In this document: one piece after another, positions 8,531-22,237 of the stretch
How the letters are laid out: every line of letters starts with the position of its first letter
Numbering within the stretch: the stretch's first letter is position 1
Source: Schaalia meyeri
GTDB taxonomy: Bacteria; Actinomycetota; Actinomycetes; Actinomycetales; Actinomycetaceae
Assembly (NCBI RefSeq): GCF_900105015.1
Contig: NZ_FNLK01000015.1
Span: 90,001-122,000 of the forward strand
DNA: 32,000 bases
Direction: 5' to 3'
Program-made: the position numbers and the translations under genes
Notes under the pieces: generated by a model
What the model was told of the DNA's origin: nothing
The model's database searches: none
The model's input: only the letters and a program-made list of their open reading frames with translations

Positions 8531-8575
8531 TCCGCTATGCGTTTTACTCCCGGGCTCCCCGGGGAGAGGACACCT

Positions 8576-9604
8576 ATGAAGTCACTGCTGACCAGGAACG
8601 GGCGGCTGCGCGCGTGGGTGATTCCCGCCCTGATCGCGCTGATCGTCGCGTGCGCGGCCGCGGCGATGATGATCGGACGGTTCTCCGTGTCACTGGAGGA
8701 TGTGGTCGCCGCCCTGCGGGCACGCTTTTGGGGAGGTCCCGCGGTTTCCCCGCGCGTCAACTCCGTCGTGTTCGACCTGCGCGCACCCCGTATTATCGTG
8801 GCGATCCTGGTCGGCGGGGGCCTGTCGGTCGCGGGTGCGTCGTTCCAGTCACTGTTCTCCAACCCGCTGGCGACTCCGGACACGCTGGGGGTCGCGGCCG
8901 GGACCTGCGTCGGCGCCGTGATCGCGCTGCTGCTCGACTGGAACCTGATCGGCGTGCAGGCCGCCGCCCTGACCGTCGGCCTGGGGACCATGGCTTTCAC
9001 GACCGCGATCTCGCGCACCAGGACGGGCTCCTTCAACGTGATCACGCTGGTGTTGGGGGGCGTCATCGTGTCGGCCCTCGCTAACGCCGTCCTGTCGCTG
9101 CTGAAGCTGACGGCCGACCCGACCAGCCAGCTCCCCGAAATCACCTACTGGCTCATGGGATCCCTGGCGGCCGTCACCTACCACCAGATCGCGTTGGGCG
9201 CGCCCTTCATCGTCGCGGGCGTCACCGTGATCGTGGCGCTGCGCTGGCAGCTCAACATCTTGTCCCTCTCCGAGGACGAGGCCCGCTCCGCCGGCGTCAA
9301 CGTCTCCCTGATGCGGGCGATCCTGATCGTCGCGTCGACGGTCATCACGGCCTCGGTGATCTCGATGTGCGGCCAGGTCGGCTGGGTGGGCTTGCTGGTG
9401 CCGCACTGCGCGCGCATGCTGTGTGGGCAGAACAATCGCGCCGTTATCCCCGCGTCCCTGCTGCTGGGGTCGGCCCTGATGATCGTCATCGACACGCTGG
9501 CACGCTCCCTGTCCGCCTCGGAGATACCGATCTCGATCCTGACGGCCATCATCGGCGCGCCGTTCTTTATCGTGCTGCTGCGCCGGACGGGGGGCGCGCG
9601 ATGA
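8576..9604 (+). CDS. Iron-chelate ABC transporter permease, FecCD family
   Basis: Polytopic membrane protein with typical FecCD features (RIIVAILVGGGLSVAGASFQSLFSNPLATPDTLGV; C-terminal GAPFFIVLLRR). ATG 8576 is preceded by GGGGAGAGGA. The stop overlaps the next start (ATGA at 9601-9604). Confidence 0.9.
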   Translation: MKSLLTRNGRLRAWVIPALIALIVACAAAAMMIGRFSVSLEDVVAALRARFWGGPAVSPRVNSVVFDLRAPRIIVAILVGGGLSVAGASFQSLFSNPLATPDTLGVAAGTCVGAVIALLLDWNLIGVQAAALTVGLGTMAFTTAISRTRTGSFNVITLVLGGVIVSALANAVLSLLKLTADPTSQLPEITYWLMGSLAAVTYHQIALGAPFIVAGVTVIVALRWQLNILSLSEDEARSAGVNVSLMRAILIVASTVITASVISMCGQVGWVGLLVPHCARMLCGQNNRAVIPASLLLGSALMIVIDTLARSLSASEIPISILTAIIGAPFFIVLLRRTGGAR

Positions 9605-10401
9605 TTAGCGTTCAGGGCGCGACCTTCACCTATCCCGGCGCGCCCGCCCCGATCCTGCGTGACATGAGCTTTACTGTCCCGGAGCGTTCCCTGCTGGCCG
9701 TCCTGGGGCCCAACGGGGCGGGGAAGACGACGCTGCTGCGCACCATGATCGGCCTGCAAAAGTGGGACAGCGGGCGCACCTTGATCGACGGCACCGACAT
9801 TTCCGACATGTCGACGCGCGCGCTGGGCCGGGTGCTGTCCTACGTTCCGCAGGCACGCAACGCGTCCAACGTGGCGCTCACCGGCCTGGAGATGGTCATA
9901 GTCGGGCGCGCACCGCACATGCGCACCTTGGCCCAGCCGGGGGCTCGCGAGGAGGCGATGGCCCGGGAGGTTCTCGACGAGATCGGCGCCTCGCACCTGG
10001 CGGAGATGCCATGCGCGACCATGTCGGGCGGGCAGTTCCAGATGATCCTCATTGCCCGCGCGCTCGTCGCGAACCCGCGGGTCCTCGTGCTGGATGAACC
10101 GGAGACCGGACTGGATTTCCGCAACCAACTGATCGTCCTGGGGTTGCTCGAACGCCTCGTGAAGGATCGGGGGCTGGCCGTCATCATGAACACGCACTAC
10201 CCGGCTCACGCCCTGAGGGTTGCGGACCAGGTTGCGCTCTTTTCCTCCACCCACCAGGCCGTGGTCGGTCCCGCGTCCTCCGTGATGAACGCTGCCACCC
10301 TGGCGGACGTGTTCGGGGTGGACGTGGCGATCGGCTGCGTGCCCTTCGAGGGCGAGGACGTGAGGGCCATCGTGCCGGTGCGGCTGGCCGGCCCGCAATA
10401 G
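9601..10401 (+). CDS. Iron-chelate ABC transporter ATP-binding protein (FecE/FepC-like)
   Basis: Walker A GPNGAGKTTLL, signature MSGGQFQM, Walker B VLVLDEPETGLD, H-loop NTHYP. The start ATG 9601 lies inside the longer track ORF 9367..10401. Confidence 0.9.
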   Translation: MISVQGATFTYPGAPAPILRDMSFTVPERSLLAVLGPNGAGKTTLLRTMIGLQKWDSGRTLIDGTDISDMSTRALGRVLSYVPQARNASNVALTGLEMVIVGRAPHMRTLAQPGAREEAMAREVLDEIGASHLAEMPCATMSGGQFQMILIARALVANPRVLVLDEPETGLDFRNQLIVLGLLERLVKDRGLAVIMNTHYPAHALRVADQVALFSSTHQAVVGPASSVMNAATLADVFGVDVAIGCVPFEGEDVRAIVPVRLAGPQ

Positions 10402-10725: not shown

Positions 10726-10944
10726 ATGGACCACATCGTCAAGGCTGAGACCGCGCCCACCATCAGCCAGGCCACCGCCTCGGCTTCCGTTTTCGTCGCC
10801 CTCATCGTCGTCCTGGCCGGACTCGGCATGGCCGCCGCCCTGCAGGTCGCCTCCGTGTCATCGATGGTCCTGGCGGTCGTCATCGCCCTGACCGCCCTGA
10901 TCGTCTCCCCCGCGATCATCTCGATCGCTCGCACGCGCGCCTGA
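10726..10944 (+). CDS. Small hydrophobic protein (72 aa, two predicted TM helices), unknown function
   Basis: AAGGAG (10716-10721) lies 4 nt before ATG 10726. The sequence MDHIVKAETAPTISQATASASVFVALIVVLAGLGMAAALQVASVSSMVLAVVIALTALIVSPAIISIARTRA has two hydrophobic spans. Its own terminator follows. Confidence 0.55.
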   Translation: MDHIVKAETAPTISQATASASVFVALIVVLAGLGMAAALQVASVSSMVLAVVIALTALIVSPAIISIARTRA

Positions 10945-10982: not shown

Positions 10983-11017
10983 AGCGTGACACCGCCGAGG
11001 TGTCGCGCTTTTTCTTT
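10983..11017 (+). terminator. Rho-independent terminator after the 72-aa ORF
   Basis: 11-bp stem, AGCGTGACACC (10983-10993) with GGTGTCGCGCT (10999-11009), containing one G-U pair. The loop is GCCGA. It is followed by TTTTTCTTTG. Confidence 0.6.
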
Positions 11018-11081
11018 GCCTGCCTCCCCCCGCCTCGTCCATGTGAGCGCCGAAAAACCGGGCATTGGAGCCCCCGGAGAC

Positions 11082-11111: not shown

Positions 11112-11144
11112 CTATTTGTCAACCACTGCATCGAGGAGGATGTG

Positions 11145-11441
11145 ATGAACGGTTTTCGCATGGACACAGACAGGTTGGAAGAGGCCTCGGGGGAAATGGG
11201 TCGGCTATCCGACGGGATGAGCGAACTGGGGCTGGACAAGTGTGAAGAGTCCTTCGACTGTGGAGATAGCGCCGTGAGAGACGCGCTGATGTATTTTGTC
11301 TCCATGTACAACAGGCGCGGTCAGGCCACACGGGAGTGGCTCAACAAGACCGCCAGCGGGCTGCACGCTACCGCGTATGCGACGCAGGAAACCGACGACG
11401 AAGTGGCGGCGGTCTTCGAGGCGATTCGAGCGAAGCTGTAG
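11145..11441 (+). CDS. Small helical ESX/T7SS-associated helper (EspC/DUF2580-like, WXG100 superfamily) carrying a YxxxE motif
   Basis: AGGAGG (11134-11139) lies 5 nt before ATG 11145. The product is 98 aa and reads as all-helical. The C-terminal LHATAYATQETDDEVAAVFEAI contains Y78-A-T-Q-E82 (TAT at 11376-11378). The gene ends 13 nt before the WXG-protease gene. Confidence 0.6.
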   Translation: MNGFRMDTDRLEEASGEMGRLSDGMSELGLDKCEESFDCGDSAVRDALMYFVSMYNRRGQATREWLNKTASGLHATAYATQETDDEVAAVFEAIRAKL

Positions 11442-11454
11442 AAACGAGGGAATC

Positions 11455-12753
11455 ATGGAAGCGAGATTTTCGCAGCGCTTTCCGGCTGTGACGGGGGATC
11501 TGGGCTCGATCTGGTCGTGTCAGAACGAAATCAGGAATCGCTCGCGCCAGATCGGGGAGCTGTACACCGGCGTCAACGCTGTCATCAGCCGGTGCATCGA
11601 CTGGGAGGGACAGGCGAAAGACGCCTTCATCAACAGCGCGAGCGTCGAGAAACGCGAGATTGGCATCTGGGAGGACGGCACCCTCCAGGCGGCGAACGCG
11701 CTGAAGAGCTACTACTTCACTCTGGAGTGGGTCATTGGCTCGGTCAACGGGATCCGTGCCCGGGCGGACGAGCTGTGGGAGCAATACCAGGCGATGACCC
11801 CCGCCGACAGGGCGATGCAGGAGGCTTCCATTAAGGAGGAACTTTCCTACCTGCAAAAGAGCTACGACGACGCGAAGAACGAGCTGTCGAACCAGGCGCT
11901 GAACACCGCGGCCTCCCTCAGGGAGGCCCTGTATTTCACGCCGGAGGATATCCACACGGTCGAAGACGAGCACATCGACATTGGGGACACACGTTCCCTA
12001 ACAGACACAGAGATCAACAGCATCCTCGCCCACCTCAGCAATCCTTCATCCACCCTGTTCAGTATCAAGCAAGGGCAAATTGGAGACTGCCACCTGCTCG
12101 CCTCGCTCAACGCTTATAACCAGACCGAGGCGGGACGCAGGTATCTGGCGAGCCTCATTACCCCGCACTACGGCGCCGACGGCAAGGTGGACGGGTTCTA
12201 CGTGAACTTCCCCGGGTTCGGCAGGAACCGCAGGCGCGTTTTTGTCCAGGACGTACTGGAGCATGGGGATACCGCCGGGAGGAGCCGCAACGCTGACCTC
12301 GGCTCCATCTTCGAGAAGGCATTCGTCCAATCGCACATGGGCGGGACACGGGGGAAGTTCCCCACGTGGGGAGCCTCCGGGAGCCTGTCGGCCTTGACCA
12401 TGACGGACATCTCCGGCAAGCTCACCGCACCGATTCCACTCACGAACTCCACCAACGCGGCCGCCATGTTTGCCGCAATAGCCGCGGTCAACACGGGCAA
12501 GCCGGTCGTCGCCGAGTCCGGCCTCGTTACCGGGCCCGCAGACGTCATCGTCGGCGGGGAGCCGACGAGGATCCAGGTCTCCTCCAGCCACGTCTACACC
12601 GTCGTCGGAGCGGACGGCAACGGCGTGACCCTCACGAACCCGTGGGGGCACAACGATGCCCCCAACGGTAGTCGAACGGAGGCAACCTTCACGATGAGCT
12701 GGAGGGACTTCTTCGCCAACTTCGGCGACGTCACCGTGGGGCGGGTCCCGTGA
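11455..12753 (+). CDS. Putative T7SS-secreted polymorphic toxin: WXG100-like N-terminal domain fused to a calpain-like (peptidase C2-type) cysteine protease domain
   Basis: GAGGGA RBS before ATG 11455; the product is 432 aa. N-terminal helical region of about 190 aa with IDW50EG52QAKDAF (TGG at 11602-11604). C-terminal domain motifs: KQGQIGDC212HLLASL (TGC at 12088-12090), IFEKAFVQSH, SSH379VYTVVG (CAC at 12589-12591) and LTN395PWG (AAC at 12637-12639). These match calpain QGxLGDCWLLAA, EKAYAK, GHAYS and RNPWG. The upstream part of the track ORF (11296-11454) overlaps the helper gene out of frame and is not used. Confidence 0.8.
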   Translation: MEARFSQRFPAVTGDLGSIWSCQNEIRNRSRQIGELYTGVNAVISRCIDWEGQAKDAFINSASVEKREIGIWEDGTLQAANALKSYYFTLEWVIGSVNGIRARADELWEQYQAMTPADRAMQEASIKEELSYLQKSYDDAKNELSNQALNTAASLREALYFTPEDIHTVEDEHIDIGDTRSLTDTEINSILAHLSNPSSTLFSIKQGQIGDCHLLASLNAYNQTEAGRRYLASLITPHYGADGKVDGFYVNFPGFGRNRRRVFVQDVLEHGDTAGRSRNADLGSIFEKAFVQSHMGGTRGKFPTWGASGSLSALTMTDISGKLTAPIPLTNSTNAAAMFAAIAAVNTGKPVVAESGLVTGPADVIVGGEPTRIQVSSSHVYTVVGADGNGVTLTNPWGHNDAPNGSRTEATFTMSWRDFFANFGDVTVGRVP

Positions 12754-13232
12754 GCGTTAAGCCCCCGCGCAAGCGCACCGTGTTCACCATCCTCGCCCTG
12801 GTCTTCGTCATCGCCTGGACCTACGCCCACATCGCCTACGCCTGGCCCTGGAAACGATTCCAAACAGGCACCCGCATCACCTGCCAAGGCCAATACAGCG
12901 TCGGCTCTATACCAAACACTCCGGCTCCCCTACTGGGATTTCTTTCCGGCGGCTCCCCCGTACTCTTCGGCGCCAGGGGCAGGATCAACATGGGGGTCGA
13001 GACAGCCAGCATCGGCCTATCCGCAGAGATTGACGGCAAGATAGACACCCTCGCCTACGTGCCGGAAGTGAGCCTGGGGGAGTCCGCCACCGTCGATGGG
13101 GTGGGCACCTTCACCCTCAAACGGGCCTACTCGGGCACTGTGTGGTTCACCCCCAACCCCGGGGGAGCAACCTTCTGCTTCGAACCCGACCCCACCTTCA
13201 CCATACGAGAAGGAAAACAACGAGTGAAATGA
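12750..13232 (+). CDS. Membrane-anchored small protein, candidate immunity/inhibitor protein, copy 1
   Basis: GTG 12750 overlaps the toxin stop (GTGA). The product is 160 aa. It has a KPPRKR positive patch, then the TM helix TVFTILALVFVIAWTYAHIAYAW, then a roughly 120-aa beta-looking domain with two Cys residues. It is a paralogue of the next gene. Confidence 0.7.
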   Translation: MSVKPPRKRTVFTILALVFVIAWTYAHIAYAWPWKRFQTGTRITCQGQYSVGSIPNTPAPLLGFLSGGSPVLFGARGRINMGVETASIGLSAEIDGKIDTLAYVPEVSLGESATVDGVGTFTLKRAYSGTVWFTPNPGGATFCFEPDPTFTIREGKQRVK

Positions 13233-13276
13233 GGACAAGCACTCTCACCACCCTCACCGCAGGGCGGGTCCCGTGA
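13229..13276 (+). other. 15-codon relic ORF (MRTSTLTTLTAGRVP) retaining the toxin 3' end, bridging the two paralogues
   Basis: ATG 13229 overlaps the stop of copy 1 (ATGA). Its stop at 13274-13276 overlaps the GTG start of copy 2 (GTGA). Its last residues, GRVP plus stop, and about 15 nt of DNA are identical to the toxin gene end (..VTVGRVP stop). Confidence 0.35.
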
Positions 13277-13746
13277 GCGTTAAGCCCCCGCGCAAGCGCA
13301 CCGTGTTCACCATCCTCGCCCTGGTCTTCGTCATCGCCTGGACCTACGCCCACATCGCCTACGCCTGGCCCTGGAAACGATTCCAAACAGGCACCCGCAT
13401 CACCTGCCAAGGCCAATACCAGGTAGGAGCGGAACCTCACCAGAACGCGACGTACCTAGGAACACTGACTGACGACTCATTGGTGAGGTTCGACGCCTGG
13501 GGAGAAATCAACATGGGGGTCGAGACCGCAGGATTTTCCCTATTCACGATTGAAGGCAATCACGTGAACGACATCGCCTACGTGCCGGAAGTGAGCCTGG
13601 GGGAGTCCGCCACCGTCGAGGGAGTGGGCACCTTCACCCTCAAACGGGCCTACTCGGGCACTGTGTGGTTCACCCCCAACCCCGGGGGAGCAACCTTCTG
13701 CTTCGAACCCGACCCCACCTTCACCATGTTCGAAGAAGCCAAATGA
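13273..13746 (+). CDS. Membrane-anchored small protein, candidate immunity/inhibitor protein, copy 2 (variant central region)
   Basis: 157 aa. The first 49 aa are identical to copy 1. The central 52 aa are 21/52 identical. The next 50 aa are identical except for one D/E change. It has the same TM anchor and the same two Cys residues. Confidence 0.7.
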   Translation: MSVKPPRKRTVFTILALVFVIAWTYAHIAYAWPWKRFQTGTRITCQGQYQVGAEPHQNATYLGTLTDDSLVRFDAWGEINMGVETAGFSLFTIEGNHVNDIAYVPEVSLGESATVEGVGTFTLKRAYSGTVWFTPNPGGATFCFEPDPTFTMFEEAK

Positions 13747-13793: not shown

Positions 13794-15188
13794 TCAGGGC
13801 AGCCGCGGAGGCCGCGCCTGGGCGGCGGCCCGCGCGGCCGCCGGGGCGGCCGCAGCAATCGCCTCGATCTCGGCGTCACCGTGCGCCGCGGAGGTGAACC
13901 AAACCTCGAACACTGAGGGCGGCAGTGCTATGCCCGAGGACAGGAAGGAATGGAAGAACGGACCGTAACGCCACGCCTCCTGGGCACGCGCCTGCTCGTA
14001 GTCGTACACGCCAAAGGCGGCAGCGACCTCGCCGAACATGAACGAAAACAGAGAGCCCGTGCGCTGGACGCGGTGAGCGACTCCGCAGGCGCTGAGGGCA
14101 TCGGAAACAATGGTACTGATCGCCTGAGCCGAGGCATTCACACGGTCGTACACGCCCCGGTCGGCCAGCTCAAGGGTGCGCAGGCCCGCGGCGGTGGCCA
14201 GCGGATTGCCCGACAGCGTACCCGCCTGGTAGACGGGTCCCACAGGCGCCAAAAGATCCATGACGTCCGCGCGGCCACCCACGGCGGCCAGCGGCATGCC
14301 GCCCCCCACGACCTTGCCGAAGGTCACCAGGTCAGGCACCCAATCCGCGCCACCCACCGCCGAGTCATCGACGAACCCGGCGCTGAACTCGCCCGCTGGG
14401 GCGCCATCCACCCAGGAGGCCACGGCCTCCAGTCCCCACCAGCCGGCGGGGTCAACGCGGAAGCCCGTCAGGACCTCATCGAGAATCATGAGGGCGCCGT
14501 GAGCGGTACACAGGCGACGGATTTCGCGGTTCCATCCCGGGCGCGGGGGCACGGCACCCATGTTGGCGGGCGCGCCCTCGAAAATGACGGCAGCGATGCG
14601 GCCACCCGCCTCGTCGAAGCAACCGCGAAGCGCATCAACATCGTTATAGGGCAGCACGACCGTCTGCGCGGCAATCGCCTCGGGAACACCCGCGGATCCG
14701 GGCAGTCCGCCGGTGGCCACGCCGGAGCCGGCGGCCGCCAGCAGCCCGTCTGAGTGCCCGTGGTAATTCCCCGCAAACTTGACGATCAGATCGCGTCCGG
14801 TGGCGCCGCGCGCCAGGCGAATCGCTGTCATGGTCGCCTCGGTCCCGGTGGAAACGAAACGGACGCGCTGGGCAAAGGGAACGCGCTCCCGCACGGCGCG
14901 GGCGAGGAACGTCTCGGTTTCCGTGGGCGCCCCGAAGGACAGCCCGCGCGAGGCTGCTTCCTGGACGGCGGCGACGACCTGGGGATGGGAGTGACCCAGG
15001 AGCGCCGGCCCCCACGAGCCGACCAGATCCACGTAGGTGCGCCCCTCGATATCGGTGACGGTCGCGCCGCTGGCGCTCGCGATAAAACGCGGGGTGCCGC
15101 CGACGCCCCCGAAGGCGCGCACGGGCGAGTCAACGCCGCCGGGTATCACGGATTTCGCTTGAAAAAACGCTGTTTCGTTACTGGTCAC
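13794..15188 (-). CDS. hemL: Glutamate-1-semialdehyde 2,1-aminomutase
   Basis: [12 protein letters not shown], the class III aminotransferase core and a PLP-lysine context ([11 protein letters not shown]). I prefer GTG 15188 ([25 protein letters not shown]-like element 6 nt upstream, same N-terminal spacing as E. coli HemL). The track start is at 15200. Confidence 0.9.
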
Positions 15189-15242
15189 GGCTACCTTCAC
15201 GGGACGAGGCCTGGGTTTGTTTCGCTTCCATCCTACCCGCGC

Positions 15243-16274
15243 TCAGCGCCAGCGGCGGGCAGCTTCGGGCGCCCAGTAGGTCAGCACCGAGTCGGCACCC
15301 GCTCGAAAGATGCCGGTGAGGGATTCGTCGATGACGCGTTCCCGGTCGATCCAGCCGTTGGCGGCGGCGGCCTCGACCATCGAGTACTCGCCGGAGACCT
15401 GGTAGGCGGCGACGGGAATGTCGGATGCGGCAGCCACGTCGGCCAGGACGTCCAGGTAGGGGCCCGCCGGTTTCACCATGAGCATGTCGGCCCCCTCCGC
15501 GGCGTCCAGGAGCGCTTCGAAGACCCCTTCGCGGCGGTTGGCGGGATCCTGCTGGTAGGTGCGGCGGTCACCTGTGAGGGTGGATCCAACAGCCTCGCGG
15601 AAGGGCCCGAAGTAGGCGGACGCATACTTCGCGGAATAGGCCAGGATCGCGACGTCTGCGTGCCCCGCCCGATCAAGGGCCGCCCGTATCGCGGCCACCT
15701 GCCCGTCCATCATGCCCGAGGGGGACACCATGTGCGCCCCGGCGCGCGCCTGGGAAATGGCCATGGCCTGGTAGAGGGGCAACGTGGCGTCGTTATCGAC
15801 GCCACCCGATCCGTCAAGAAGACCGCAGTGCCCGTGATCGGTGAACTCGTCCAGGCACGTGTCGGCGCACACGACCAGGGCGTCGCCGACCTCGGCGCGT
15901 ACGGCGGCCAGTCCGCGGTTGAGGATGCCGTCCGGGGCCCACGCCTGGGTGCCGGTCGAGTCCCGCATGGCTGGCACGCCGAACAGGTCAATCGCGCCGA
16001 CCCCAGCCTCGGCGGCCTGGGCGGCGGCCCTGCGCAGGGAATCAATCGTGTGCTGGTACTGGCCGGGCATGGCGGCGATCTCGCGGGCCTCGTCGATGTC
16101 GTCGCGGACGAACACCGGCCATATCAGCTTGGCGGGATCGACGTGAGTTTCGCGCACCAGGCCGCGCATCGCGGGCGTGGAGCGCAGTCGGCGCGGGCGA
16201 ACGGTCGGGGTGGGGGCACCCTCCACCCCGGCCTCGGCCAGGTAGGAGGTGACGGATGTGGGCACGGTGGTCAT
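15243..16274 (-). CDS. hemB: Porphobilinogen synthase (delta-aminolevulinate dehydratase)
   Basis: RPRRLR, the [15 protein letters not shown] metal-site region, [11 protein letters not shown] and [12 protein letters not shown] are characteristic ALAD motifs. The start overlaps the hemD stop (ATGA at 16271-16274). Confidence 0.95.
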
Positions 16275-17083
16275 TGCTGTCCTTGGGTCGGCGAGAGGAT
16301 GTCGGTCAATGCGCGGGCAACCGCGTCGGGTCCGGGGGAATCGGCGTGGGCGGCCACGCCGATTCCCTGGCGTCGCGCCGTGTCGGCGGTGGGCGCGCCG
16401 ATGGTGGCGACCGGGGTCGTGGGAGGCGGCGTGCCCAGGAGGGTGAGCAGGGCTGGCACCTGGGAGGAAGCGGTGAGCAGGAGCGCATCGAAGTGGCCGC
16501 TCCGGTAGGCATCGGCGAGGTCTGTCGGGATGTCCCCGGGGGTTGCGGGCCGCGTGGTGTAGGCGTCAACCGCGTCAACGCTCCAGCCGAGAGCGCTCAG
16601 CCCGTCGGGCAGGTTTGGGGGCGCGATGGCGGATCGGGGGATGAGGACGCGGCCTCTTTGGTTGCCCGTGACCGGTGGAAAGGCGCGCACCAGCGCGGCG
16701 GCAGAACCCTGTCCGATCAGGTCGGGCGCCACCTTCCCGCAGTCTTTGATCCACCGGGCGGTGGCGGCTCCGACGGTCGCGATGCGAGTGCCGCGCGCGT
16801 GCGCGTCGGCGAGGAGGGGCGCAACCGCGCGGGCGCCTCTCCACGAGGAGAGAACCACCCAGGCGTAGGCGCCGCCACCCAGGTCCGTGCGCGCTTGGTC
16901 GAGTCGTGGGGATTCAAGGGGTAAAGAGACGGTCAGGGCCAGCGCGTCAACGTGCGCGCCCGCTTCCGTCAGGGCCAGCGCGATGGCATCGGGCTCCTTG
17001 AGGCGGCCCAGGAGAATGCGCCTGCCGACCAGCGGGCCCTCGCCCTGCCCCCGGGACGCGTCCGTGCCCTCTGGCGCGCTCAC
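16271..17083 (-). CDS. hemD: Uroporphyrinogen-III synthase
   Basis: About 270 aa, Ala/Gly-rich two-lobe HemD-like protein sitting between hemC and hemB. The GTG start overlaps the hemC stop (GTGA). The family is weakly conserved, so position contributes to the call. Confidence 0.75.
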
Positions 17084-18114
17084 GAGGGTGACCTGAGCGG
17101 CTTGGATGCGCGCAGGTCGGCCACGTTTGCGCCGCCCGCCGCCAGCAGGTTCTGCGCACAGCGCCTGCCCGCCGTGGCGGCGTCGGCTTCGCAGGCGTTA
17201 TCCGTGAGCGCCAGCGTGTCACGGGCCTCGACCGACGCGGACCCGTCCACCGCCACAATCCGCGCGTCGATGACCAGGGCAGAGTCGTCCTGGTTGACGC
17301 GGGCCAGGGCGCCCACGGGTGCCGCGCACCCGGCACCGAGGGACGCCATGAGTGCACGCTCGGCACTCGCCGCGAGCGCGGTGCCCCGGTCGTTCAGCGC
17401 GGCGACGACGGAGCGCAGCTCGGCGTCGATGTCGTCGCGCGTCTCGATCGCCAAGGCCCCCTGGGCGGGTGCGGGCATCATGGCCTCGGGGGGCAGGACG
17501 TGCGTGGCGTGGCCGCCAAGGCCCAGGCGTTTCAGGCCGGCGAGGGCCAGAACGACGGCCTCGAGTGGCTCACCCGTCCCGAGGGCCGTGTGCGCGGTGC
17601 CGACGTCCGTGCCCAGATCGACACCGCGCACGCGGGACAGGCGGGTGGGGACGTTGCCGCGCAGGTCGCAGATGCGCAGGTCCGGGCGGGCGGCGAGCAG
17701 CTGGGCGGCGCGGCGCGGCGACCCGGTGCCGACGCGCGCACCCTCCGGCAGGTCCGCCAGGGTCTGCCCGTCGGCGGCACACAGGGCGTCGCGCGGGTCT
17801 TCTCGGCACGGGACGGCCGCGATACGCAGGCCAGGAACGGGTGCGGTGGGCAGGTCTTTGAAGGAGTGGACGGCCAGGTCACACTGGCCTTCCAGCAGGG
17901 CCAGGCGCAGCTGGGCGGCGAACACTCCGATCCCACCCAGGGACGCGAGAGGTGTCGCGGTCACGTCCCCGTGGGTGCGGACGACCTTCAGCTCGACCGT
18001 GATGTTGAGGCCCATCGCCGCTCCCGCGCGCGAGGCGGCGCGGGCGACCGCGGCGGATTGGGCCAGGGCCAGCCGAGATCCTCGTGTGCCCAGGATCAGC
18101 GTGCGAGCGGTCAT
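17080..18114 (-). CDS. hemC: Hydroxymethylbilane synthase (porphobilinogen deaminase)
   Basis: LILGTRGSRLALAQS, HSFKDLPT, VGTGSPRRAAQL, RGNVPTRL and the dipyrromethane Cys context GAGCAAPVGA. ATG 18114 overlaps the hemY stop (ATGA). The track ORF extends to 18180. Confidence 0.95.
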   Translation of the reverse strand: MTARTLILGTRGSRLALAQSAAVARAASRAGAAMGLNITVELKVVRTHGDVTATPLASLGGIGVFAAQLRLALLEGQCDLAVHSFKDLPTAPVPGLRIAAVPCREDPRDALCAADGQTLADLPEGARVGTGSPRRAAQLLAARPDLRICDLRGNVPTRLSRVRGVDLGTDVGTAHTALGTGEPLEAVVLALAGLKRLGLGGHATHVLPPEAMMPAPAQGALAIETRDDIDAELRSVVAALNDRGTALAASAERALMASLGAGCAAPVGALARVNQDDSALVIDARIVAVDGSASVEARDTLALTDNACEADAATAGRRCAQNLLAAGGANVADLRASKPLRSPS

Positions 18115-19583
18115 GACAGTCCTTTCGCGCTCGCGCGCGCGTGCGAGACGACGGACGCGACGCCGGTGCCCGCGACCCACGCGCCGGTCAGGGCCAGGCC
18201 CCCCAGCGAGGCGACAGCGGCCTGCAGGGAAGCGACCCGCTCACGGTAGTCCGGGGGCAGGGGTGGGAGCGTGCCGTTCCAGCGCACCAACAGGTGATCG
18301 ACAACAGCGTCGGGGTCGATGCGCACGCCCGTCATGGCTCGGACGTCGCCCAGGGCGCGCCTGAGGTCGACCTCGGGTTCGGGTTCCCCGTAGCGGCCGT
18401 AGGACAGGCGCAACAGGTGTGTGCCGGCCTCGAACCGGCGCGCAAGCCACGGCCACTTGACGGTCAGGTGGGACAGGGCCTTGGCCTCGACGGGGCGATC
18501 GCCCGCGGGCGCGGGGGCGACCAGCAGGCCCTGTGAGACGGGTGCGTCGTCCAGCTCGGGAGCGCGCACGGCCAGGGTGAGGCGCGCGATGGGCGCGCCC
18601 TTGGGAACGCTCACGTCCGGGCCAGCGGGGATCCCCGCGCCATCCAGGATCCGCAGGGCGGCCTGCGCGCTGCAGGCCAGGACCACGCGCGGCGCGCGGA
18701 TGGCCGTGCCCGGCCCGTCGGGGACCGGCTCGGCGCTGGGGGTGGGTCCCCGGCGGGTCGGCCCCACGTCGCACCTCCAGGCCGTGCCGTCACGCGACAG
18801 GGTGCGGGCCCCCATCCGGGTGCAGACGGTTCCCCCGGCGGCCTCGATCGCCTGGCGCAGGGCGTCCACCAGGACGAACATGCCGCCCTCAACGCAGGCC
18901 TCGGGGGCGCGGCGCGTCCCCGAGCGGGCCAGGAGCTCGCCGACCGCCGCAGCCAGGGAGCCGGTGCGCGCGGTCGCGGCGCGCAACCCGGGGGCCACGG
19001 CGTCGGTGGCCAGCATTGACGGATCGGAGGTATAGATGCCGCTCACGATGGGGCGCACCGATCGCTCAAGCACCTGGGTCCCCATGCGGGCGGCCACGAA
19101 ACCGGCCAGCGTATCCCCGGCCCGGTCCATCCCAACGGAGGGGCCCATGGACGCGTCGAGGAGGGCGCGCCGCACCCCGTCAGCCCCAAAGGCGTGGGCG
19201 CAGTCGGGGGCGTCCGGGCGAGCGGGGATCCCCAGGAAGGATTCTCGCAGGAAGGGACGCAGCTCCCAGCCGCCCTGGCGCGCGGGCGCGAAAAGACGCG
19301 CGCCGGACCCGGCGGGCAGGGCGGCGCGCAGTCCCAGGTCGGCGATCATGGAGCAGACGTCGGTACCGCGAATGACGAAGGTCTCCGCGCCCAGGTCCAC
19401 GTCTGTCCCTGCGATGCGGCCGCGCGCGATGAGGCCGCCCAGGTAGCCGCGGGCCTCGACCAGGAGGGGGCGTTGCCCAGCCCGTGCCAGCTCCCACGCC
19501 GCCGTAAGGCCCGCGATTCCCCCACCGACCACGACCGCCCCGGGGGCGGTTGGGATGCCTGGATGCGTCTCCACGCGGCTCAC
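18111..19583 (-). CDS. hemY: FAD-dependent protoporphyrinogen/coproporphyrinogen III oxidase (HemY/CgoX type)
   Basis: N-terminal dinucleotide fold VVVGGGIAGLTAAWELARAG. It is about 490 aa and lies between hemE and hemC. The GTG start overlaps the hemE stop (GTGA at 19580-19583). Confidence 0.8.
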   Translation of the reverse strand: MSRVETHPGIPTAPGAVVVGGGIAGLTAAWELARAGQRPLLVEARGYLGGLIARGRIAGTDVDLGAETFVIRGTDVCSMIADLGLRAALPAGSGARLFAPARQGGWELRPFLRESFLGIPARPDAPDCAHAFGADGVRRALLDASMGPSVGMDRAGDTLAGFVAARMGTQVLERSVRPIVSGIYTSDPSMLATDAVAPGLRAATARTGSLAAAVGELLARSGTRRAPEACVEGGMFVLVDALRQAIEAAGGTVCTRMGARTLSRDGTAWRCDVGPTRRGPTPSAEPVPDGPGTAIRAPRVVLACSAQAALRILDGAGIPAGPDVSVPKGAPIARLTLAVRAPELDDAPVSQGLLVAPAPAGDRPVEAKALSHLTVKWPWLARRFEAGTHLLRLSYGRYGEPEPEVDLRRALGDVRAMTGVRIDPDAVVDHLLVRWNGTLPPLPPDYRERVASLQAAVASLGGLALTGAWVAGTGVASVVSHARASAKGLS

Positions 19584-20671
19584 CTGCCCGCGTCGTGGAC
19601 CAGCTCCACGATGTGGGTGAGCACCGTCGGGTCCGTGGTCGGGGGGACGCCGTGCCCCAGGTTAAAAATGTGGCCGGGAGCGGCTCGACCGGTGGCGAGA
19701 ATATGACGAACGGCCTGTTCGATAACGTCCCACGGAGCCTGCAACAGTGCGGGGTCCAGATTCCCCTGGACCGCCTTGCCGGGAACCTGCTCGATCGCCC
19801 ACGCCAGGTCCGTCTTCCAGTCCACGCCCACGCAATCCGCCCCGACGGCAGCCATATCGGCCAGGATCGGTGCGCTGCCCGTCCCGAAGTGAATGAGCGG
19901 GGCGCGCCGACCGGTCACCGGGACGCGCGCCCGAGCAAGGCGGGAGGCGACGCGGCGCGAGTACGGCGCGACCGAGTCGCGATAGACCCGCGGGGACAGG
20001 GAGCCCACCCACGAGTCAAAGAGCTGGGCGGCGCTGGCGCCGGCCTCGACCTGGGAGGCGAGGAAGTCGCCGGTCACGCGCGCACACCAGCCCATGAGCT
20101 CGTCCCACGCGCCAGGATCCGAGGCGGCGAGCGCCCGGGCCGCCAGGTGGTCGCGGGAGGGGCGTCCCTCGACCATGTAGGCGGCCAGCGTGAAGGGGGC
20201 GCCCGCGAATCCGATGAGGGGGGTCTCGCCCAGTTCGCGCACGGCCAGGGCGACGGCCTGGCGCACCGCTCGGGCGCCCTCACCGCAATCGCGGGCGTTT
20301 CCAGCGGCGTCGGTCCACGAGCCGGACCCGTAGGAGTGACGGGTGAGCTCATCGATTGCCTGGCGCGTGCGGTACGGGTGGTCCAGGACGGGGCCCACGC
20401 CCGGCTCAATCTCGACCCCCACGCCCGCCAGGCGCAGGGGGATCATGATGTCGGAGAAGAGGACGGCGGCGTCCACGCCGTGGCGGCGCACAGGCTGAAC
20501 GGTCGCCTCGGCGGCGACCTCGGGGACCAGGCAGGCCTCGAGCATGGGCAGGCCCACGCGGGCGCGCAGCTGCCTGTACTCGGGCAGGGAGCGGCCGGCT
20601 TGGCGCATGAACCACACGGGGGCGGGTCCACGCCGCCCCGTCAAGGCAGCCAGCAGCGGGGGCATCGTCAT
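19580..20671 (-). CDS. hemE: Uroporphyrinogen decarboxylase
   Basis: PVWFMRQAGRSLPEYR, the signature N-terminal URO-D motif, is present, along with FDSWVG and NLGHGV motifs. AGGAAG RBS lies before ATG 20671. Confidence 0.95.
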   Translation of the reverse strand: MTMPPLLAALTGRRGPAPVWFMRQAGRSLPEYRQLRARVGLPMLEACLVPEVAAEATVQPVRRHGVDAAVLFSDIMIPLRLAGVGVEIEPGVGPVLDHPYRTRQAIDELTRHSYGSGSWTDAAGNARDCGEGARAVRQAVALAVRELGETPLIGFAGAPFTLAAYMVEGRPSRDHLAARALAASDPGAWDELMGWCARVTGDFLASQVEAGASAAQLFDSWVGSLSPRVYRDSVAPYSRRVASRLARARVPVTGRRAPLIHFGTGSAPILADMAAVGADCVGVDWKTDLAWAIEQVPGKAVQGNLDPALLQAPWDVIEQAVRHILATGRAAPGHIFNLGHGVPPTTDPTVLTHIVELVHDAGR

Positions 20672-20914
20672 GTCTCTTCCTTATTTTAGATAGGGGTCCG
20701 TGCGGTAATTCGTGCGCATCGGGCACCGTCCAGTTTAGTGGGTACCATTTTGTGCCACGGCCTCAGCTGTTGAAATAATGCTTTTTCCCATCCCCTTTGC
20801 CGCGGGAGAATGCCAAATATTCAACCATCGAAACATCGTGACACGGGCGTCACCAACCCTCGTTCGTCGGCCGTTGGGACACCGACGCCCCTCGTGCCCT
20901 TAAATGGGAACGTT

Positions 20915-22237
20915 GTGACTGTTCATATGCTTTCAGCGGACCACCGCCACGCCCCCCTCGACGACATCGCCCGGCTCTCCGGCGCGACCGACCTCGGCCC
21001 CACGCTGGCACGCGCGTGCCCTCAGGCGCGCGGCGTCATGGTCCTGCGCACCTGCAACCGCGTCACCGTCTACATCGACGCACCCGCCTCGGCCAACCCC
21101 CGCGCGCTCCGCGACACCGTCGAGCGCGAGCTGGCCCGGGCCTCGGCGATGGCGAGGAAGGACGTGAAGCTGCGCCACCTGTGGGGGCGCGACGCCCTCA
21201 CCGACCTGTTCGCGACGGCCGCGGGCCTGGAGTCCATGGTCGTCGGGGAACGCGAGATCGCGGGGCAGATGCGCCGCGCAGCGCACTGCGCATGGGAGGA
21301 CGGGACCCTCAGCTGCGACCTGGGTCGCGCCGTGGAGCGCGCGTCCGCGACCTCGCGGCGCATCGCCACCGAAACCAGTTTGGCGGGAGCGGGGCGCTCG
21401 GTCGTCGCCGTCGGACTGAACCTGGCGGCCGCCCACCTGCCCGCGTGGGAGGACACCAGGGTCCTCATCGTCGGGACGGGCGCGTACGCGGGCGCCTCTG
21501 TGAGCACGCTGGCCGCCCTGGGCGCCCTGGACGTGTGCGTCTACTCCACGTCCAGCCGCGCGGAAGAGTTCGCACGGGGACGAGGCATCGGCTGGGTCGA
21601 TGCGCACGCCCTCCCGGACGCCCTTCGCCGCGCGGACCTGGTGCTCACCTGCCGGGGACTGGGGTCCGCCGTCCTGACCCGTTCCCTCGCGCAGCGCGCC
21701 GGCCGCACGGTTGTTTTGGACCTGGCGCTCACCCGCGACGCGGACGCCTCCATCGCGGATCTGCCGGGGATCACCCTCATCGACCTGCCTACGATCCAGG
21801 GGTCGGTGCCCGACGCGCAGGTCGACGCGCTCGATCGCGCCCATGCGATCATCTCCGAGGAGGTGGACTCCTTCGAGCGCGGCCTCGGCGCCCGCTCAAT
21901 GGACCCCGTCGTGCGCCACCTGCGCGCCCGCGTCTTCGACATCGTCGACGCGGAGATCGCTCTTCTGGGCCAGGATCCCATCTCGCCCGAGAAAGCGGCG
22001 CGGGCCCTGCGCCACCTGGCCGCCCGACTCGTCCACAACCCCACCGTCATGGCCCGCAAGGCCGGCGAAGAGGGTCAACAGGAGCGCTACCTGGAGGCGC
22101 TGAGCGTGGTCCTCGGCATCGACGAGGCCGTGTCCGTGTGCCCCGCCCACGCCCGCAACCGGAGCGCTGTTCACGGCCAGCAGGCACCTCACCATTGCGA
22201 GGCGCGCACCAGGCCGCTTCGTACACTGGGGGCATGA
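20915..22237 (+). CDS. hemA: Glutamyl-tRNA reductase
   Basis: TCNRV active-site Cys motif, VVGEREIAGQM, and the NADPH-binding VLIVGTGAYAG. I chose GTG 20915 (GGGAA 5 nt upstream), which puts the conserved His at residue 10 as in other HemA proteins. The ATG 20810 extension is AT-rich and its SD abuts the ATG. Confidence 0.88.
   Translation: MTVHMLSADHRHAPLDDIARLSGATDLGPTLARACPQARGVMVLRTCNRVTVYIDAPASANPRALRDTVERELARASAMARKDVKLRHLWGRDALTDLFATAAGLESMVVGEREIAGQMRRAAHCAWEDGTLSCDLGRAVERASATSRRIATETSLAGAGRSVVAVGLNLAAAHLPAWEDTRVLIVGTGAYAGASVSTLAALGALDVCVYSTSSRAEEFARGRGIGWVDAHALPDALRRADLVLTCRGLGSAVLTRSLAQRAGRTVVLDLALTRDADASIADLPGITLIDLPTIQGSVPDAQVDALDRAHAIISEEVDSFERGLGARSMDPVVRHLRARVFDIVDAEIALLGQDPISPEKAARALRHLAARLVHNPTVMARKAGEEGQQERYLEALSVVLGIDEAVSVCPAHARNRSAVHGQQAPHHCEARTRPLRTLGA

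Follow-up and report, generated by a model that had tools for sequence, protein, structure and literature searches.

A 32,000-nucleotide stretch of the Schaalia meyeri genome (RefSeq assembly GCF_900105015.1, contig NZ_FNLK01000015.1, positions 90,001–122,000; hereafter referred to as the window) contains a gene for a 432-residue protein in which an N-terminal helical bundle is joined to a calpain-like cysteine protease domain. It is flanked by a gene for a small helical partner and by two tandem genes for predicted exported proteins, and these cassette neighbours tell more about function than do the protease motifs. The locus is probably a toxin–immunity cassette of the type VII, or Esx, secretion system (T7SS), in which the protease would be the exported toxin, the downstream genes would form an extracytoplasmic immunity array, and the target would lie on the cell envelope of neighbouring cells. 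The immunity reading follows from the overlap with the protease stop codon, the occurrence of the downstream gene in one to five copies, its hypervariable centre, its co-variation with the protease, the existence of orphan copies, and protease decay with the downstream gene retained. The link to the T7SS follows from the WxG turn and PPE41-like fold of the N-terminal domain, relatives matching the T7SS_signal and WXG100 families, the partner gene, and a family member inside the Esx locus of S. hyovaginalis. The features of the cassette, all on the + strand, are as follows (coordinates refer to the window).

11145–11441, + strand: 98-residue helical partner; ATG after GAGGAGG, alternative GTG at 11142; stops 13 nt 5′ of the protease start
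11455–12753, + strand: protease gene; ATG start, TGA stop, 432 residues
11455–11934, + strand: N-terminal helical-bundle domain, residues 1–160 (AlphaFold2 helices, Foldseek); W50-x-G52 at 11602–11610
11935–12039, + strand: linker, residues 161–195; low model confidence, variable length
12040–12753, + strand: calpain-like (Peptidase_C2) cysteine protease domain, residues 196–432 plus stop codon (Pfam, alignment, Foldseek)
12070–12072, 12088–12090, 12589–12591, 12637–12639 and 12643–12645, + strand: codons of Gln206, Cys212, His379, Asn395 and Trp397 (checked codon by codon)
12412–12579, + strand: variable segment of the protease, residues ~320–375, directly N-terminal to His379; types differ among loci
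12750–13232, + strand: candidate immunity protein 1, 160 residues; its GTG overlaps the protease stop TGA at 12751–12753 (GTGA)
13273–13746, + strand: candidate immunity protein 2, 157 residues; tandem paralogue of protein 1 (78% protein identity)

The extent of the protease gene given in a preliminary description of this DNA, which had been made from the letters and their translations, was borne out: a ribosome-binding site (GAGGGA) lies 5 nt 5′ of the ATG, and the starts of the homologues favour this codon. A listed alternative, an open reading frame (ORF) of 485 residues starting with TTG at 11296, was dropped because it overlaps the partner gene and because all homologues begin at the equivalent of the ATG. 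The G+C content of the cassette region drops to 0.60, compared with ~0.68 in the flanking DNA; despite this lower overall value, third-position G+C marks the cassette ORFs as coding.

A predicted calpain-like protease core

The preliminary description had claimed a complete calpain-like Cys-His-Asn core as the C-terminal domain, and had proposed a Pfam scan and a Foldseek comparison of an AlphaFold model as ways to check it. The four motif blocks that it quoted, and the numbering Cys212, His379 and Asn395, are correct codon by codon, and the core was upheld by the Pfam hidden Markov model, by alignment and by Foldseek. Peptidase_C2 (PF00648) matched residues 198–400 above its curated cut-off (29 bits compared with 23.8; E = 6.9e-7). 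The same model matched 15 of 22 family members (best E = 1.3e-10), whereas no C39 model matched any of these 22 at E < 0.01. Invariance of the catalytic residues was assessed by aligning 25 homologues of full length, which share 53–89% identity. The oxyanion-hole residue Gln206, six residues before Cys212, is invariant, as are Cys212, His213, His379, Asn395, Pro396, Trp397 and Gly398, so that the Cys-His-Asn order and the Asn-Pro-Trp motif are both present; the catalytic and oxyanion residues are still conserved in family members at 25–30% identity. A profile of the C-terminal domain pairs Cys212, His379 and Asn395 with Cys105, His262 and Asn286 of m-calpain (1kfu), which lie in the blocks DICQGALGDCWLLAA and GHAYSV...IRNPWG; the calpain matches of this profile in the PDB are weak (E = 0.5–0.8) and of use for residue equivalence only. 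A single-sequence phmmer search of the PDB returned coiled-coil noise only, and NCBIfam has no model matching any cassette protein.

The AlphaFold2 model of the protein has a mean predicted local distance difference test score (pLDDT) of 69, with values below 50 at residues 256–310 and of 76–92 around the catalytic elements (76 near Cys212, 82 near His379, 78 near Asn395). When this model was compared with the PDB by Foldseek, the top two matches were protease cores of human calpain-3 (6bdt_B and 6bjd_A; E ~2e-6, probability 1.0), aligned over 280–296 columns at 16–18% identity with a root-mean-square deviation of 8–10 Å; papain-family plant proteases ranked far below. Judged by sequence and model, the calpain match is not a product of chance, and the domain is predicted to hold an intact C2-family catalytic core with the two-subdomain CysPc fold. 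It is hardly credible that the likeness is superficial and the domain a catalytically dead scaffold or a member of another papain-like family, such as a C39-like one. Partial coverage of the Pfam profile (positions 44–245 of 297), the low identity and high deviation relative to calpain-3, the low-confidence part of the model, and the prior labelling of some close homologues with PF13529 (Peptidase_C39_2) in place of PF00648 would fit such a view, but not the invariance of all catalytic and oxyanion residues in a family whose members share as little as 25% identity, nor the distribution of C2 and C39 matches within it.

The protein stops 37 residues past Asn395, with no further Pfam domain; neither a C2-like nor a penta-EF-hand domain can therefore follow, as the preliminary description had stated. 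By its sequence, the domain (~240 residues) appears to be a C2-family core and nothing more, lacking the regulatory domains that classical calpains carry. The missing calcium-binding and regulatory domains exclude a classical calpain but not membership of family C2, because bacterial calpain homologues have no calcium-binding sites (Rawlings, 2015; PMC4631099). Bacterial calpain-like proteases had also been called rare and mostly uncharacterised, and it is the rarity that was overstated: NCBI names homologues of the present protein 'C2 family cysteine protease', and fusions of WXG100 and calpain domains were reported in 2015 (PMC4631099).

Predicted exported proteins with a hypervariable centre

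The overlap between the protease stop codon and the GTG of the first downstream gene recurs in the related loci L018, L023 and L024. Both downstream proteins of the window have an Arg/Lys-rich N-terminus, a hydrophobic helix (residues 8–31 in the AlphaFold2 model), a β-rich domain and two invariant cysteines; the N-terminus resembles a signal-anchor, with a possible AxA signal-peptidase site (AYA followed by W). The tandem repeat that holds the two genes has a period of 523 bp, and its unit takes in the last ~20 nt of the protease gene. The flanks of the repeat are 99–100% identical at the DNA level (12731–12896 compared with 13254–13419, and 13051–13204 compared with 13574–13727), and the central 154 nt of the two copies are 51% identical. 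Among the window and 15 related loci, every contig that continues beyond the protease gene carries the downstream gene in one to five tandem copies, and the family has conserved ends and a centre that is hypervariable in discrete types. Copies from distant lineages, which lie beside proteases of 25–30% identity, are recognised by the pattern G(D/E)S.T..G.GTFTL...FCF.PDP.F and are lipoproteins, with the lipobox LSSC in Buchananella, LTGC in S. hyovaginalis and IAGC in L024. S. hyovaginalis (L017) has two paralogous downstream proteins, one of 112 residues (11405–11743) with neither signal peptide nor the conserved cysteines, and a lipoprotein of 177 residues (11773–12306); the pair may provide cytoplasmic and surface protection, respectively.

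Immunity protein 1 is 100% identical to a public S. meyeri protein. It (P0233) is filed as 'DNA-binding protein' in S. meyeri, S. odontolytica and Pauljensenia, a label for which there is no evidence in sequence, predicted topology or context. Matches of the downstream proteins to CshA_repeat (E ~0.005–0.1) fall below the cut-off and were not taken as meaningful. PADLOC has no model for the cassette proteins and thus provides no link to known anti-phage systems.

The variable segment of the protease (residues ~320–375) and the first downstream copy vary together in type. The Mantel correlation with the first downstream copy was r = 0.63 for the variable segment, compared with 0.45 for the conserved part of the protease and 0.40 for the N-terminal domain; as this comparison does not control for sequence relatedness, the co-variation is only suggestive. 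The segment is a candidate for the surface that determines immunity specificity. Downstream copies of the window type (KRFQTGT...) are found elsewhere only at positions 2–4 of an array, that is, as orphans beside a different protease type. In a different S. meyeri assembly, the protease is reduced by an internal deletion to 193 residues lacking Cys212, with the partner gene and one downstream gene kept.

Such internal-deletion alleles (P0134–P0136; L020 and L021, 5001–5582) join residue ~29 (..EIRNRS/KR) to residue ~259 (..GRNRRRV), which suggests deletion between short similar sequences; both the N-terminal domain and Cys212 are missing from them, and one has a frameshift at its C-terminus in addition. 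Homologue P0038 is a mosaic that belongs to the clade of the window up to residue ~108 and to another clade beyond, and some other homologues are mosaic too, which points to recombination between protease alleles.

The cassette might also serve a purpose other than antagonism: the protease could be secreted to break down host proteins or nutrients, or to process the producer's own surface, with the downstream genes encoding its inhibitors or substrates. Characterised bacterial C2 members, such as Tpr of Porphyromonas gingivalis, are secreted or membrane-associated proteases. Bacterial calpain homologues as a group have been called secreted or membrane-associated (Rawlings, 2015; PMC4631099); in addition, the cassette keeps a stable chromosomal position with conserved synteny. 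Under this explanation, one to five diversified copies, divergence restricted to the centre, orphans, and decay of the protease with the inhibitor kept would all be unexpected, which makes it quite unlikely.

The N-terminal bundle and the link to type VII secretion

The first 160 residues are modelled as three helices (16–49, 53–113 and 116–160), with W50-E51-G52 at the turn joining the first two. W50 and G52 are invariant in a wider family alignment of 19 full-length proteins. Ranked after the calpains, Foldseek matched the N-terminal domain to PPE41 chains from PE25–PPE41–EspG5 complexes (probability 1.0; template modelling score of up to 0.65 on the target). Of the 22 family members, nine match T7SS_signal (PF21725; best E = 3.9e-7), eight WXG100 (PF06013; best E = 3.1e-5) and four WXG100_2, and one family member is named 'YukE' in UniRef. 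The window protein itself has no WXG100 match, but the WxG at the helix turn, the invariance of its Trp and Gly, and the matches among relatives justify the label 'WXG-type' that the preliminary description had given to the protein. A profile of the N-terminal domain found nothing significant in the PDB, and LXG (PF04740) was matched neither by the window protein at E ≤ 1 nor by any of the 22 family members at E ≤ 0.01. The linker to the protease domain (pLDDT 35–39) is acidic and, across the 25 homologues, variable in length; it opens with the conserved junction motif ALYFTPED, in which L159 to D165 are invariant.

A connection to a secretion apparatus comes from S. hyovaginalis, where a complete Esx/T7SS locus (EccC, two EccD, EccB, mycosin and two WXG100 genes) houses a family member; the protease gene is located between EccC/EccD and EccD/EccB/mycosin, beside the two WXG100 genes. 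Other family members reside in 'orphan' cassettes remote from T7SS core genes. In S. odontolytica, a working Esx system has been described in which each candidate substrate adjoins a small hairpin gene (PMC13622651). In the loci examined here, L018 excepted, a small helical ORF likewise adjoins the protease gene, mostly upstream. In L023, a locus of the Actinomyces sp. ICM58 type, a partner-like helical ORF of 110 residues (11841–12173) follows the immunity gene instead of preceding the protease gene. The 98-residue partner is a candidate for a targeting role like that of WXG100, EspC or Tap proteins. Its orthologues match the Pfam family DUF6317 (27.9 bits compared with a cut-off of 27.4; 4 of 11 match, best E = 1.9e-6) and, weakly, T7SS_ESX_EspC. 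A profile of the partner found nothing significant in the PDB; its best match, HP0062 (E = 0.57), is no more than a lead. As export motifs, Y87xxxE91 and Y160xxxE164 of the protease were rejected, being conserved in the close clade only and not in the wider family, as was Y79xxxE83 of the partner, where orthologues have Gln.

A cytoplasmic protease of regulatory function, with the N-terminal bundle used for oligomerisation or regulation, no secretion and unrelated neighbours, would account for the lack of a signal peptide on the protease, the lack of T7SS genes in the window and the sub-threshold T7SS_signal score. We regard it as very improbable in view of the WxG turn, the PPE41-like fold, the WXG100 and T7SS_signal matches of the family and the member within a T7SS locus, and also because the protease is strictly linked to the partner gene and to a family of exported proteins.

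Proposed mode of action

In the mode of action that we propose for the T7SS toxin–immunity cassette, the 98-residue partner would pair with the N-terminal WXG bundle to give an elongated helical complex recognised by the T7SS ATPase EccC, and this partner–protease complex would then be exported. The C-terminal domain would be active as a papain-clan protease through Cys212, His379 and Asn395, with Gln206 in the oxyanion hole; the residues are in place and the activity is predicted from them. Operating without calcium-sensing domains, it would cut a protein or peptide of neighbouring cells that sits in their wall or on the external side of their membrane. Such a location beyond the cytoplasmic membrane is suggested by the fact that the candidate neutralisers are themselves exported. 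The two membrane-anchored exported proteins would use their hypervariable centre to bind the protease, neutralising it at the producer's surface, and the extra immunity copies of other strains might guard against protease variants made by yet other strains.

Several observations weigh against this proposal. T7SS core genes (EccB, EccC, EccD, MycP) are absent from the 32-kb window, the window protein scores 20.5 bits with T7SS_signal, under the cut-off of 27, and no YxxxD/E export motif is conserved in protease or partner; the window copy of the partner matches no Pfam family. The cassette occupies a fixed, syntenic chromosomal site and is not obviously a mobile island. The locus L022 (10001–11420; protease 44% identical) has the partner upstream but no adjacent immunity-like gene, a convergent fumarase gene following directly. 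The AlphaFold2 model of the immunity protein is of low confidence (pLDDT 53.7), and Foldseek found no match for it with E < 0.6. All 19 full-length matches to the N-terminal domain that were aligned carry the same calpain-like C-terminal domain. Binding or inhibition of the protease by the downstream proteins is purely our inference, and secretion, proteolysis and toxicity of the window protein are predictions.

The constant pairing of the two domains also limits what kind of toxin this could be. A profile search of 1.84 billion representative proteins with the N-terminal domain, using HMMER, returned 29 matches only, and the domain was never found there on another toxin domain; a word-based search for other architectures gave fragments and deletion alleles only. 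As the N-terminal domain is joined to a single payload, the proteins form a fixed family, and a shuffled trafficking module, as is typical of polymorphic toxins, was dropped as an explanation.

Named family members all belong to the Actinomycetaceae (Schaalia, Pauljensenia, Actinomyces sp. and Buchananella); records titled Sanguibacter and Xylanimonas, which have odd strain labels, are probably mislabelled. This is the known host clade of Saccharibacteria (TM7), and the protease might be an Esx-secreted weapon aimed at these epibionts, which are surface parasites of oral Actinomycetaceae, and not at competing Actinomycetaceae, with the downstream proteins shielding the producer's surface. The confinement of the family to the host clade agrees with this, exported immunity would suit a protease that acts on the producer's own surface, and the S. 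odontolytica Esx system restricts how far Saccharibacteria proliferate, several of its candidate substrates being induced by infection (PMC13622651). The same study, however, mentions no protease effector, and the secretome that it reports comprises four substrates, all from inside the Esx cluster. Hypervariable multi-copy arrays that match protease variants go beyond self-protection and argue for conflict of strain against strain, so that a purpose directed solely at epibionts is unlikely.

The most specific form of the proposal, put forward tentatively and with somewhat less than an even chance of being right, is that the protein represents the first T7SS effector that is an extracytoplasmic protease of the calpain family, acting on rival Actinomycetaceae or on Saccharibacteria epibionts, and countered by a new, surface-anchored and cassette-diversified family of inhibitors whose hypervariable centre sets strain specificity.

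Genomic surroundings

The site of the cassette is shared by homologues down to 53% identity: an ABC transporter of the iron type flanks it on one side and hemL on the other. Upstream of the cassette, two further features were noted in the window.

10726–10944, + strand: ORF of 72 residues with two hydrophobic helices; faint Pfam matches only
10983–11009, + strand: terminator-like hairpin and T run; 11-pair stem with 7 G-C pairs, tail TTTTTCTTT

The hairpin terminates the 72-residue membrane ORF and forms the cassette's 5′ limit. All Schaalia and Pauljensenia loci keep this ORF 0.2–1 kb 5′ of the cassette. Between it and the partner gene, L001 (~8842–9620), L002–L006, L012, L014 and L015 have a stretch of ~780 bp with an internal inverted repeat and no convincing ORF, which is missing from the window (site ~11020–11080) and from L007–L011. 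Rfam had no match in the window or in L001, this stretch included; it may be the remnant of a small mobile element. Further upstream, the ORF of an ABC-transporter ATPase (9367–10401, + strand; 344 residues, GTG start) overlaps the FecCD permease gene (8537–9604, + strand) by ~240 nt; its true start is probably near 9600, as orthologues have 266–275 residues.

On the other side, positions 13794–22237 of the window, between the immunity array and dnaB, hold hemL, hemB, hemD, hemC, a gene for an oxidoreductase resembling flavin-containing amine oxidases, hemE and hemA. In another S. meyeri assembly (L021, 6228–8534), an EamA transporter gene and dnaB are all that is found at that site, which indicates that the heme cluster is variably present there.

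Comparison with known systems

With calpain-3 (6bdt, 6bjd) and m-calpain (1kfu), the protease shares the Pfam family, the order and spacing of Gln/Cys...His...Asn-Pro-Trp, and the best fold match. It differs from the eukaryotic cores in its size (~240 compared with ~320 residues), in sequence (16–18% identity) and in the lack of C2-like and penta-EF-hand domains, and, unlike the cytosolic eukaryotic enzymes, it is probably extracytoplasmic. The resemblance to PE25–PPE41 and EsxA–EsxB consists in the superposition of the N-terminal domain on PPE41, the WxG at the helical turn and the adjacent small helical gene. In contrast to PE/PPE proteins, the cassette proteins have no PE or PPE sequence motifs and no conserved YxxxD/E in the partner, an enzyme is fused to the bundle, and no gene for an EspG-type chaperone is nearby.

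LXG toxins of the Firmicutes T7SSb consist of an N-terminal helical targeting domain and a C-terminal toxin, are accompanied by Lap helpers, and commonly have immunity arrays. One of them, TelC of Streptococcus intermedius, acts on the envelope and is said to be countered by a membrane-anchored extracellular immunity protein, TipC. The present cassette would correspond to these toxins in its helper, helical targeting domain, C-terminal toxin, exported immunity and arrays; it departs from them in that LXG is not matched, an apparatus of the T7SSa type is expected, and the N-terminal domain occurs with one toxin domain only instead of being exchanged among many.

The closest precedent for the domain architecture is found in the fusions of calpain (Peptidase C2) and WXG100 domains described in Herpetosiphon aurantiacus and Segniliparus rugosus (Rawlings, 2015; PMC4631099), which a reviewer of that paper considered probable T7SS-secreted toxins. 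The likeness is one of outline: an N-terminal WXG-type helical domain and a calpain-family catalytic domain, without calcium-binding domains. The window protein has a longer N-terminal domain, which is PPE-like with three helices and ~160 residues and which the WXG100 model of Pfam hardly recognises. The 2015 paper includes neither a helper gene nor an exported immunity array, and a term search found no mention of Actinomyces in it (PMC4631099).

For the layout of the locus, the closest precedent is EatA–EatI–TapA1/A2, a T7SS toxin locus of Mycobacterium abscessus in which this layout has been validated (Benedict et al, 2026; PMC13444075). EatA attacks the cell envelope and depends on an Esx system, EatI is a lipoprotein, and immunity proteins of the lipoprotein or transmembrane kind were found alongside toxins acting outside the cytoplasm (PMC13444075). 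Compared by layout, both loci have small Tap/Lap-like helical genes at the 5′ side, a toxin with an N-terminal bundle and, at the 3′ side, an exported immunity protein. The payload of EatA is a GH183 endo-arabinanase, and its locus, in Mycobacteriales, has a single immunity gene and two Tap genes; the cassette of the window, in Actinomycetaceae, has a protease payload with a single partner gene and a tandem array that has diversified.

A papain-like protease serving as an interbacterial toxin is known from Cpe1–Cpi1 of Escherichia coli, where a C39-like enzyme, delivered to the cytoplasm by the type VI secretion system or by contact-dependent inhibition, cleaves GyrB and ParE (PMC12136450). 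Both systems combine a clan CA cysteine protease with a cognate immunity protein, which in the case of the window is a candidate. The protease of the window belongs to C2 and is not C39-like, and its immunity protein is predicted to be exported and not cytoplasmic, which implies a compartment and a target other than those of Cpe1.

Novelty and significance

The general nature of the system had been predicted: WXG100–calpain fusions were proposed as T7SS toxins in 2015, and the partner–toxin–immunity layout was established in Actinomycetota in 2026. NCBI, moreover, already gives homologues a C2-family name. In the literature searched, no T7SS-secreted protease toxin has been characterised, and neither the Actinomycetaceae family described here nor its exported immunity family was found. 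By the account of the 2026 preprint on S. odontolytica, experiments had not previously identified any Esx effector in the Actinomycetaceae, and the one reported there is without a recognisable enzymatic domain (PMC13622651).

If the proposal is true, a protease of the calpain type can work as an extracellular weapon, and the downstream genes encode a new family of exported protease inhibitors or immunity proteins. The variable segment of the protease and the variable centre of the immunity proteins would then amount to a ready-made map of specificity, and the cassette would offer a tractable system of strain competition for abundant oral commensals (Schaalia, Pauljensenia and Actinomyces). In the most specific form of the proposal, an enzyme of calpain type together with a new fold of inhibitor would be the currency of an arms race in the human oral microbiome.

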